This document shows, one piece after another, positions 11,901 through 12,907 of a stretch of DNA of 64,000 nucleotides. The stretch spans positions 17,539-81,538 of the forward strand of contig CAJXOR010000001.1 of assembly GCA_913057715.1 (NCBI GenBank), written 5' to 3'. Position 1 is the first letter of the stretch; the number at the start of each line of letters is the position of its first letter. Below the pieces are notes generated by a model that was not told the origin of the DNA, did no database searches, and was given only the letters and a program-made list of their open reading frames with translations. Both the position numbers and the translations under genes were made by a program. This DNA is from an uncultured Moraxellaceae bacterium (lineage in GTDB: Bacteria; Pseudomonadota; Gammaproteobacteria; Pseudomonadales; Moraxellaceae).

Positions 11901-12203
11901 ACCGAGGTCAAGCGCCTGCTCGACCTGATTCGGACCAGCTGCAAGGGCCGTGAGGTCCCTGTCCCCGACGTCTGCCGCACGTTCAACGAGCGCACCGAAG
12001 ACGGCCGCAAGATGGAGCATTATTCCGGTCTGCTAAGCGCGGCGATCCGCTCCATGATTGAGGTGAAAGAGGAAAAGGATCTCGACAGCCTGTTCAGCGG
12101 TGGTCGAACGACCGCGCTGACCCACACCATCGCCGGGCTCGATGACTTCGAGCTGATCGGATTCATAATAATTGAGCCAGCGATCGATGATAGCGTCGCA
12201 TGA
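8925..12203 (+). CDS. SNF2-family (SWI2/SNF2) helicase-related ATPase with an unassigned ~260-aa N-terminal domain
   Basis: Motif I [18 protein letters not shown], motif II [13 protein letters not shown], motif III [10 protein letters not shown], and C-terminal helicase motifs [40 protein letters not shown]. The likely start is MIDNINS at 8925, although the ORF is open from 8898. Confidence 0.9.
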   Translation: [1092 protein letters not shown]

Positions 12204-12907
12204 CAGGCTTCTTCGACTATCCCAAAAGCGCTGCCTTCGGCCGGGTTCTGCCCAAGAACAAGATCTACGAACACGCAGGCGCAAACACTGCCCTCAAGGA
12301 TCTGTTCGTGCGTGAGGTCGATCAGATCGTCTGGCGCTACAAGCTCGCGCCAGAAACGATCAACCTGAGCGCTACCAAATCGGTGGCCGAAATTCAGATC
12401 TTCAGCATCTCGCTGAAAACCGGCAAGCTGGACGAGACCGTTCTGCGCGCCATAGATAAGGCTATACCGTTTCCCCTGATCTTCGAGTTGAGCCATGGCG
12501 GCAAACGCAGGGCCATGGCGGCCTACAAGCGGCCGAGCGAGGCCGACAGCGCGAAGTGGGTGATCAGCGAGTACTTTGCCACCAACTGGGTGGCCGATAC
12601 CGCCGCCAGGTCGCCCCTGCCGGTCGCGCTCAACCTTGGTGGGCTTTATGACGCGCTTCTGTCCGGCTTGATGCCACAACAGGTTCAGGCGGCACCCGGA
12701 CAGAGCGCGGAAGACATACAGATCCGTGTCGAGCGGATGGAGGCGATCCGCGCCAAGACGCGAGATGTTGAACGGATCAAGGCGCGGCTGGCGCGCGAGA
12801 AGCAATTCAACAAGCGCGTGGCGATTAACGCAGAGCTGCGCGAAGCGAAATTGGAACTAAAACAGCTCACCGGGGCAAAGGCCCCGATGAGCGCACCGAG
12901 TGAATAA
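12200..12907 (+). CDS. DUF4391-like protein with a C-terminal coiled-coil, function unknown
   Basis: 235-aa ORF whose ATG overlaps the SNF2 stop (ATGA at 12200-12203). From memory, the N-terminal region FFDYPKSAAFGRVLPKNKIYEHA...IVWRYKLAPETINL...IPFPLIFEL resembles DUF4391 family members. The C-terminus is charged and heptad-like (RVERMEAIRAKTRDVERIKARLAREKQFNKRVAINAELREAKLELKQL). Confidence 0.7.
   Translation: MTGFFDYPKSAAFGRVLPKNKIYEHAGANTALKDLFVREVDQIVWRYKLAPETINLSATKSVAEIQIFSISLKTGKLDETVLRAIDKAIPFPLIFELSHGGKRRAMAAYKRPSEADSAKWVISEYFATNWVADTAARSPLPVALNLGGLYDALLSGLMPQQVQAAPGQSAEDIQIRVERMEAIRAKTRDVERIKARLAREKQFNKRVAINAELREAKLELKQLTGAKAPMSAPSE

Follow-up and report, generated by a model that had tools for sequence, protein, structure and literature searches.

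The window analysed here is a 64,000-nucleotide stretch of a contig from an uncultured Moraxellaceae bacterium (CAJXOR010000001.1). It carries, one behind the other on the same strand, the genes for a SNF2-family ATPase, a small DUF4391 protein, and homologues of the methyltransferase (Mod) and restriction (Res) subunits of type III restriction-modification (R-M) systems (Table 1; coordinates are those of the window unless a locus is named). The gene under study, that of the DUF4391 protein, is a 708-nt open reading frame (ORF) on the plus strand (12200-12907), which encodes 235 residues with an isoelectric point (pI) of 9.7. The Pfam DUF4391 profile (PF14335) matches this protein from end to end (residues 5-220 align with all 232 profile positions; E 3.4e-60), and its score of 204.3 bits over the whole domain compares with a gathering threshold of 29.9 bits. 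The family name given in a preliminary description of the window is thereby confirmed. All positions that characterize the family (P8, K19, W45-x-x-K-L, E64-I-Q, I-P-x-P at 89-92, Y150, and the EKQxN motif described below) are present. Neither PADLOC nor NCBIfam models matched the protein, and phrog_37194, a PHROG family of unknown function, matches it weakly over its full length (E 1.7e-4). A Pfam scan of 129 DUF4391 representatives revealed no second family consistently, and sequence and profile searches of the PDB returned coiled-coil noise only.

DUF4391 is a large family. Matches at E<=1e-3 among the candidates scored comprise no fewer than 4947 clusters at 90% identity, 1672 representatives at 50% identity also match, and members are found in bacteria of many phyla, on plasmids of Escherichia coli, Listeria, Enterococcus, Acinetobacter and Lactococcus, and on an archaeal plasmid. 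These cluster counts, together with a ratio of nonsynonymous to synonymous substitution rates (dN/dS) of 0.147, place the reality of the gene far beyond chance. As to transcripts, only DNA metagenome runs were found to contain the sequence. No function, structure or publication is attached to PF14335 or phrog_37194, and searches of the literature returned nothing relevant on DUF4391 or PF14335 and nothing on a four-gene cassette that combines SNF2 with a type III system. The gene is an ordinary member of a catalogued, uncharacterized family, set within a widespread type III R-M variant that apparently has no literature of its own. Database labels can mislead here, as DUF4391 proteins are at times called 'methyl-accepting chemotaxis protein' or 'chemotaxis protein' (the gene at 8986-9699 of L090, which is Erysipelothrix phage phi1605; AP026557.1; and the UniRef name of P0034), presumably on account of their helical hairpin.

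A genome scan that retained one genome per species yielded 80 loci, mostly from Alphaproteobacteria, and these loci together with the window were used for the analysis of gene junctions. The order SNF2, DUF4391, Mod, Res was found in 80/80 of them wherever the contig reaches, and the window conforms, with the four genes in order on one strand and an overlap between the SNF2 stop and the DUF4391 start. Fourteen annotated plasmids and a single phage record share this order; the plasmids come from Alpha-, Beta- and Gammaproteobacteria, Desulfobacterota, Bacillota and Actinomycetota. At DUF4391 identities of 21-42%, the order is seen in phage phi1605 and on plasmids from E. coli, Acinetobacter, Vibrio, Photobacterium, Providencia, Paraburkholderia, Mycolicibacterium, Lactococcus and Lactiplantibacillus. 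The Desulforapulum plasmid has no Res gene listed after Mod, and in Lactococcus cremoris pJM1D the SNF2 gene is interrupted by IS712. When 72,556 plasmids were searched, each of the best 38 SNF2 homologues had an adjacent DUF4391 match (38/38). A Res aligning over at least 80% of the query was present in 140 plasmid records, and SNF2 homologues were present in 148.

Cassettes of Listeria and Enterococcus encode a short DUF4391 protein of 185 residues, which is recognizable by profile comparison (hhalign probability 98.9%, E 4e-17; Pfam 33-39 bits) and whose annotation, in the records of these two genera that were examined, is no more than 'hypothetical protein'. Examples of this short form lie at L094 11196-11753, L095 11217-11774 and L088 7465-8022, on plasmids of Listeria, Enterococcus and L. 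cremoris. Because of it, counts of DUF4391 that are based on annotation or on tblastn underestimate the family. The cassette as a whole is highly mobile, being found on plasmids, as Tn7-like cargo and in prophage-like elements, and small natural versions occur on a 16.7-kb Lactiplantibacillus plasmid and on E. coli IncFIB plasmids. On a plasmid of Acinetobacter gerneri (L089 1-16407), the cassette lies directly behind genes for TnsA, a Mu-type transposase, TniB and TniQ, and appears to be the cargo of a Tn7-like transposon. The same locus has a gene-sized gap without any listed feature between Mod and Res (L089 11670-13372).

A 4-nt ATGA overlap joins SNF2 to DUF4391 in 78 of the 80 cassettes, and no insert was found between these two genes in the 80-locus set. 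Downstream, the DUF4391 stop codon (TAA, 12905-12907) is embedded in the Mod ribosome-binding site. In 66/80 cassettes, the gap between DUF4391 and Mod is 10-13 nt and the DUF4391 stop lies in or beside the Mod Shine-Dalgarno sequence, with an equivalent TAAGAGGA / TAAGGGAA / TGAGAGGA arrangement 10-13 nt ahead of the Mod ATG. The conserved Mod start in the window is ATG 12921, which follows DUF4391 after 13 nt. GTG 12900 and ATG 12915 are alternatives, and 12921 is preferred, since alignments to the PADLOC Mod model and to homologous Mod proteins begin at its first residue. Mod and Res are separated mostly by 8-14 nt, with a mode of 10 nt (28 loci). The preliminary description had proposed that the DUF4391 gene is tightly linked to the SNF2 gene and the type III module, that it overlaps the SNF2 stop by ATGA and is translationally coupled to it, and that its own stop abuts the Mod start. 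The linkage proves to be essentially obligate across the 80 loci, the 14 plasmids and the 38 SNF2 homologues, and the overlap holds at 12200-12203 and in nearly all cassettes. On the last point, Mod does follow closely, 13 nt on, with the TAA inside the ribosome-binding site.

Inserts do occur at the other two junctions, between DUF4391 and Mod in 4 loci (364-954 nt) and between Mod and Res in 5 loci (631-1752 nt). Among the inserts that were scanned, guest genes between DUF4391 and Mod encode a PLD-like protein and two proteins without a family match (L080 732-1685; L078 10674-11534; L052 10674-11006). Those between Mod and Res encode Schlafen-like proteins with AlbA_2 and HATPase_c_4 domains (L052/L055 12929-14584; L062 12662-14332; and L066). 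In the last codons of DUF4391, just 5' of the Mod ribosome-binding site (12865-12892), a GC-rich stem-loop that spans 12 positions and forms 11 pairs in plus-strand RNA was also considered as a conserved regulatory hairpin. It has a z score of -2.9 in the window, but the mean z over 76 loci is -0.1, and it is probably not a conserved element.

Co-divergence of the four proteins was analysed in 54 complete cassettes. Distances between DUF4391 proteins are correlated with those of SNF2 (Mantel r = 0.84) and Res (0.82), and far less with those of Mod (0.25). Partial Mantel coefficients are 0.52 for DUF4391 and SNF2 given Res, 0.39 for DUF4391 and Res given SNF2, and 0.06, which is not significant, for DUF4391 and Mod given SNF2. 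Within Mod, the correlation with DUF4391 is 0.11 for residues 201-450 and 0.49 for the conserved termini, with p-distances of 0.56-0.78 and 0.11-0.28, respectively. Divergence in the Mod target-recognition region is in fact uncorrelated with SNF2, DUF4391 and Res alike (r ~0.1), which indicates that this region is often swapped within a cassette that is otherwise co-inherited. Median dN/dS is 0.147 for DUF4391, 0.049 for SNF2 and 0.062 for Res. DUF4391 is thus under purifying selection, at 2-3 times less constraint than the two motors, and its excess change falls mostly in the loop and the C-terminal tail. In a segmental mirror-tree analysis, the segments that track DUF4391 best were SNF2 1021-1080 (r 0.91), Res 61-120 and Res 841-900, which are leads only.

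An AlphaFold2 model of the DUF4391 monomer, computed from 129 diverse representatives with at most 63% identity to the query, was obtained with a predicted local distance difference test (pLDDT) score of 94.4 and a predicted template-modelling (pTM) score of 0.87; an alignment of 20 close homologues gave a pLDDT of 58 and was unusable. In the model, a variable loop joins an N-terminal α/β domain to a basic hairpin of two antiparallel helices. The α/β domain has strands at 12-16, 40-49, 65-72, 93-99, 102-112 and 120-127 and helices at 19-26, 30-39, 79-88 and 146-155, and contains the family-wide conserved residues P8, K19, W45, L49 and E64. Length variation in the family is located in the loop (158-172), which holds insertions of 25 to ~70 residues in P0067 and P0156. 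Mean-field covariation analysis of the same 129-sequence alignment recovers the strand pairings and the antiparallel hairpin (V190-L213, K186-E219, L197-I209 and E200-R206). Weaker couplings connect hairpin and sheet (I70-K201, I89-I193, L97-R206 and M106-L213), and suggest that the hairpin packs on the N-terminal domain and is not a free coiled coil. The preliminary description had seen the protein as globular in its N-terminal part and helical towards the C terminus, a division that the model reproduces; for the second part, an intramolecular hairpin is predicted in place of the single long heptad helix envisaged, in accordance with covariation.

The motif E200-K-Q-F-N-R/K-K/R-V-x-x-N210 is placed exactly at the turn of this hairpin, and its residues are conserved among the 129 representatives (E200 86%, Q202 96%, F203 87%, N204 88%, N210 84%). 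The most conserved positions overall are P8, K19, W45, L49, E64, D86, K110, P141, L149, Y150 and Q202. Subfamilies at 21-25% identity and the 185-residue form keep P8, K19, W45-x-x-K-L, E64 and I-P-x-P, although those that have diverged furthest show some substitutions. The tip is kept as Q-x-N-K/R-K in these subfamilies and as Q-x-N-K-K in the short form. Only P8, K19, E64, P92 and Y150 are invariant across the distant subfamilies, and on this pattern of conservation the hairpin tip would be the best candidate for a functional site. A catalytic triad of E64, D86 and K110 was considered and rejected, as neither D86 (replaced by H, S, N or A) nor K110 is kept by the distant subfamilies or the 185-residue form. 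Because these two residues fail to persist, no consistent catalytic set can be drawn up. Foldseek searches of the PDB and BFVD gave no match at E<=1e-3, the highest query-normalized TM score (TMq) among the 50 matches listed per search being 0.26. The top entries (the Gfo/Idh/MocA C-terminal domain, CorA and BRCC36) had TM scores of ~0.2 and were treated as noise. With no Foldseek match and with D86 and K110 not kept, the protein shows no likeness to a nuclease fold, whether PD-(D/E)xK or other. The earlier observation that catalytic motifs are lacking therefore stands, and fits an adaptor or regulatory role. A structural or profile match to a well-characterized family had also been named as evidence that would tell against a part in R-M, and none emerged from Foldseek (PDB and BFVD), Pfam or PDB profiles.

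Two long proteins were examined as Rosetta-stone fusions and set aside. P0197 (729 residues) joins SNF2 residues 1 to ~545 to DUF4391 from residue ~28, which reads as an in-frame deletion, and looks like the product of a 1.7-kb internal deletion of a cassette. P0171 (720 residues) carries an unrelated C-terminal extension of 490 residues without a family match.

The reading that we favour, at roughly even confidence, is that DUF4391 acts stoichiometrically, and without catalysis of its own, as a partner of the SNF2 ATPase or an adaptor for it in a four-component type III machine. It is based on the fixed place of the gene behind SNF2, the near-universal overlap, the junction that is free of inserts in the set, and co-divergence with the motors but not with the specificity region. 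Production of DUF4391 would keep pace with that of the SNF2 ATPase, and the two would bind in a 1:1 complex. The basic hairpin or its tip might then contact DNA, or attach the motor to Res or to the conserved Mod ends. In this way the type III enzyme, on unmodified DNA, could be coupled to translocation or remodelling by SNF2, or could license it. Several points weigh against this reading. Both the contact between DUF4391 and SNF2 and the role in restriction are what we infer from sequence. The co-divergence of the two proteins is confounded by physical linkage and by shared ancestry of the cassette, and the signal at SNF2 1021-1080 by linkage in particular, that segment being encoded by the DNA nearest to the DUF4391 gene. 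In addition, the invariant K19 and E64 and the near-invariant R111 and E200 could form a catalytic or ligand site in an unprecedented fold. A bolder version of the partner reading, which is speculative and on balance unlikely, would treat SNF2 and DUF4391 as an obligate second motor module, and the whole as a dual-motor, four-subunit machine. DUF4391 would be a coupling factor of new fold, with the tip EKQFNRK as an allosteric pin in the SNF2 ATPase or in Res, and SNF2 translocation or roadblock removal would be licensed only once Mod-Res engages unmodified DNA. If this were true, many 'two-gene' type III systems in databases would belong to a mechanistically distinct class.

Four other explanations of the protein were weighed. 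DUF4391 could be a regulator or safety catch that, in the manner of an antitoxin or of a protein-level controller, keeps SNF2 or Res from acting before an infection cue or unmodified DNA is encountered, or times Res during establishment in a new host. The position of its stop codon, through which its translation feeds into that of Mod, is consistent with such a role, as are the mobility of the cassette, which would make control of establishment useful, and a rate of evolution 2-3 times that of the motors, as is often seen in interface and regulatory proteins. Many cassettes, however, already have a separate small helix-turn-helix gene for regulation upstream of SNF2. This explanation also overlaps the partner reading to an extent that sequence alone cannot separate; we take it seriously while thinking it unlikely. 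The proposal that DUF4391 is an enzyme of unprecedented fold, such as a nuclease or a hydrolase, that replaces an activity lost by the SNF2 N-terminal domain, draws on the same invariant and near-invariant residues, on the 98-99% conservation of D86 and K110 within the main subfamily, and on the lack of HxK in that SNF2 domain; with no fold relative, analogy offers no argument against an active site. Against this stand the loss of D86 and K110 in distant subfamilies and the short form, which leaves no consistent set of acid, base or metal-binding residues, the absence of similarity to any enzyme family in Pfam, the PDB or PHROG, and the intact PD...ExK nuclease that Res already provides. We judge the enzyme quite improbable.

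A similarly low probability is attached to the idea that DUF4391 forms homo-oligomers through a C-terminal coiled coil and so dimerizes two SNF2 or Mod2Res assemblies. The C-terminal segment is charged and heptad-like, weak profile matches connect it with the PAN N-terminal coiled coil and with myosin/GCN4 (E 0.3-0.6), and the covarying pairs that link the hairpin to the N-terminal domain could be contacts between subunits. The AlphaFold2 model nevertheless folds this segment as an intramolecular antiparallel hairpin at a pLDDT of 96-98 (whole-chain pTM 0.87), antiparallel covariation within the hairpin is the strongest signal in the region, and conservation peaks at the tip rather than along a hydrophobic seam. 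The remaining explanation, that DUF4391 is a specificity or target-recognition subunit matched to the sequence that Mod recognizes, had been offered in the preliminary description, and the protein is indeed basic and its gene adjoins Mod. Its divergence is unrelated to that of Mod 201-450 (r = 0.11; partial Mantel for Mod given SNF2 0.06, not significant), and as the Mod target-recognition region is shuffled independently of DUF4391, such a subunit is unlikely. Moreover, the variation in DUF4391 lies mainly in the loop and the C-terminal tail, with no recognizable reading head, and type III Mod has a target-recognition domain of its own, as seen from homology to EcoP15I Mod. We disfavour this proposal strongly and regard it as very improbable.

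Table 1. Features of the four-gene cassette and predicted parts of the DUF4391 protein (window coordinates)
Feature	Position	Strand	Basis or remarks
SNF2-family ATPase, 1092 aa from ATG	8925-12203	+	Pfam SNF2-rel_dom and Helicase_C; PADLOC 'HKD+Snf2' C3a139
ATGA overlap of DUF4391 start and SNF2 stop	12200-12203	+	translational coupling
DUF4391 α/β domain, residues 1-157	12200-12670	+	AlphaFold2, covariation, conservation
DUF4391 variable loop, residues 158-172	12671-12715	+	mean p-distance 0.69 vs 0.24-0.28 in the two structured parts; lowest pLDDT block
DUF4391 basic antiparallel helical hairpin, residues 173-223 (helices 173-199, 203-223), pI 10.9	12716-12868	+	model, covariation
Hairpin-tip motif E-K-Q-F-N-K-R-V-A-I-N, residues 200-210	12797-12829	+	family consensus EKQFNRKVELN
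Mod ribosome-binding site AAGAGGA	12906-12912	+	overlaps DUF4391 stop codon
Type III Mod (beta-class N6-adenine methyltransferase)	12921-14855	+	PADLOC MTase_III E 1.9e-216; 4ZCF_A E 2.4e-53; DPPY
Mod target-recognition region, residues ~200-500	13520-14420	+	hypervariable, p-distance 0.52-0.78
Type III Res (SF2 helicase and C-terminal PD-ExK nuclease)	14866-17997	+	PADLOC REase_III 1093 bits; 4ZCF_C E 4.5e-66; RE_endonuc E 2.2e-35

The neighbouring genes are intact in their recognizable motifs, with one exception. The PADLOC 'HKD+Snf2' model covers the SNF2 protein over its full length (E 4.8e-128), and the SNF2 motifs are preserved, including GLGKT and DESH; the ORF extends upstream to TTG 8898, and homologues begin at MIDNIN. 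The N-terminal ~230 residues (8925-9620), however, read F-I-H-I-D in place of the expected HxK, in spite of the name of the model, and Pfam found no PLD domain in the N-terminal 231 residues. This nuclease-like domain is probably inactive. The C-terminal 197 residues of SNF2 gave no match to Pfam. Mod has the DPPY and FAGSSST motifs and the internal target-recognition region of a beta-class N6-adenine methyltransferase, and Res has the GTGKT, DEPQ and PD...ETK motifs of a type III restriction subunit. Res likely starts at ATG 14866, 10 nt past the Mod stop, in an ORF that extends upstream to ATG 14839.

The window cassette (8756-18215) lies in the chromosomal origin region, after dnaN, dnaA, rnpA, yidC and mnmE and before a NUDIX gene. 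In blastn comparisons with the 80 related loci, the window flanks had no match, even at the locus of the closest cassette (L001), with which SNF2 and DUF4391 are 95% and 92% identical. As no related locus matches the flanks, the cassette looks horizontally acquired. Directly upstream of SNF2, many cassettes carry a small gene of the helix-turn-helix or RelB-like kind (L083 5472-5681; L084 5292-5528; L085 5530-5727; L091 4535-4720; L093 4198-4701); the window has no such gene in the 170-nt spacer between mnmE and SNF2.

The interest of the cassette is that a distinct clade of Res is accompanied, in every locus and plasmid examined, by a second motor of the SNF2 family and by a small protein without a fold relative or literature. 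Knowledge of the function of DUF4391 would tell whether this is a separate class of ATP-dependent restriction, what part a SNF2 remodeller plays in defence, and what an uncharacterized fold is for. The cassettes of the 16.7-kb Lactiplantibacillus plasmid and of the E. coli IncFIB plasmids would be tractable models. New for DUF4391 itself are a confident model and the covariation that supports it, the hairpin-tip motif, the partial-Mantel and dN/dS results, and the 185-residue short form.

Among known defence systems, Hma consists of HmaA, a SNF2-nuclease with a C-terminal PD-ExK nickase, the methylase HmaB and the ATPase HmaC (Payne 2021; PMC11232893), and guest defence genes are embedded between its core genes (bioRxiv 10.1101/2024.01.29.577857). 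The cassette resembles Hma in having a SNF2 helicase in an operon with a methylase and guest genes between core genes. It differs in that its SNF2 has a degenerate N-terminal domain and is partnered by DUF4391 and type III Mod and Res; the PADLOC HmaA match covers the helicase core only (E 1.1e-24), there is no HmaC-like gene, and the cassette is thus not an Hma system. Class 1 DISARM comprises the SNF2 helicase DrmD, the methylase DrmMI, the helicase DrmA, the DUF1998 protein DrmB and the PLD protein DrmC. Here the likeness is that a SNF2 ATPase occurs together with an adenine methylase, with a further helicase and with a small DUF protein that partners a helicase, and the cassette SNF2 matches DrmD models through its helicase core (E 3.4e-36). 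Nevertheless, it scores 153 bits against the NCBIfam DrmD model, for which the cutoff is 610, DrmA, DrmB and DrmC are not among the four genes, and the nuclease-helicase is a type III Res, which places the cassette outside DISARM. In this comparison too, DUF4391 matched no other family.

Type III R-M is textbook two-subunit biology, with an enzyme of composition Mod2Res1-2, in which cleavage is ATP-dependent and requires two inversely oriented unmethylated sites, and we know of no DUF4391 or SNF2 partner in the classical systems. By homology of its Mod and Res, the four-gene cassette is a type III system: both match EcoP15I (Mod2Res; PDB 4ZCF) at the E-values given in Table 1, and the order of mod before res is common to the cassette and to EcoP15I and EcoP1I. 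The Res proteins nevertheless form a clade of their own, since the EcoP1I-type Res of P1-like plasmids aligns over only 59-73% of the cassette Res, at ~30% identity. Type III systems were counted as M plus R only in a recent survey of lactococcal R-M. The cassette departs from this classical composition of two genes, mod and res, by adding two tightly coupled genes, SNF2 and DUF4391, ahead of mod in every case examined.

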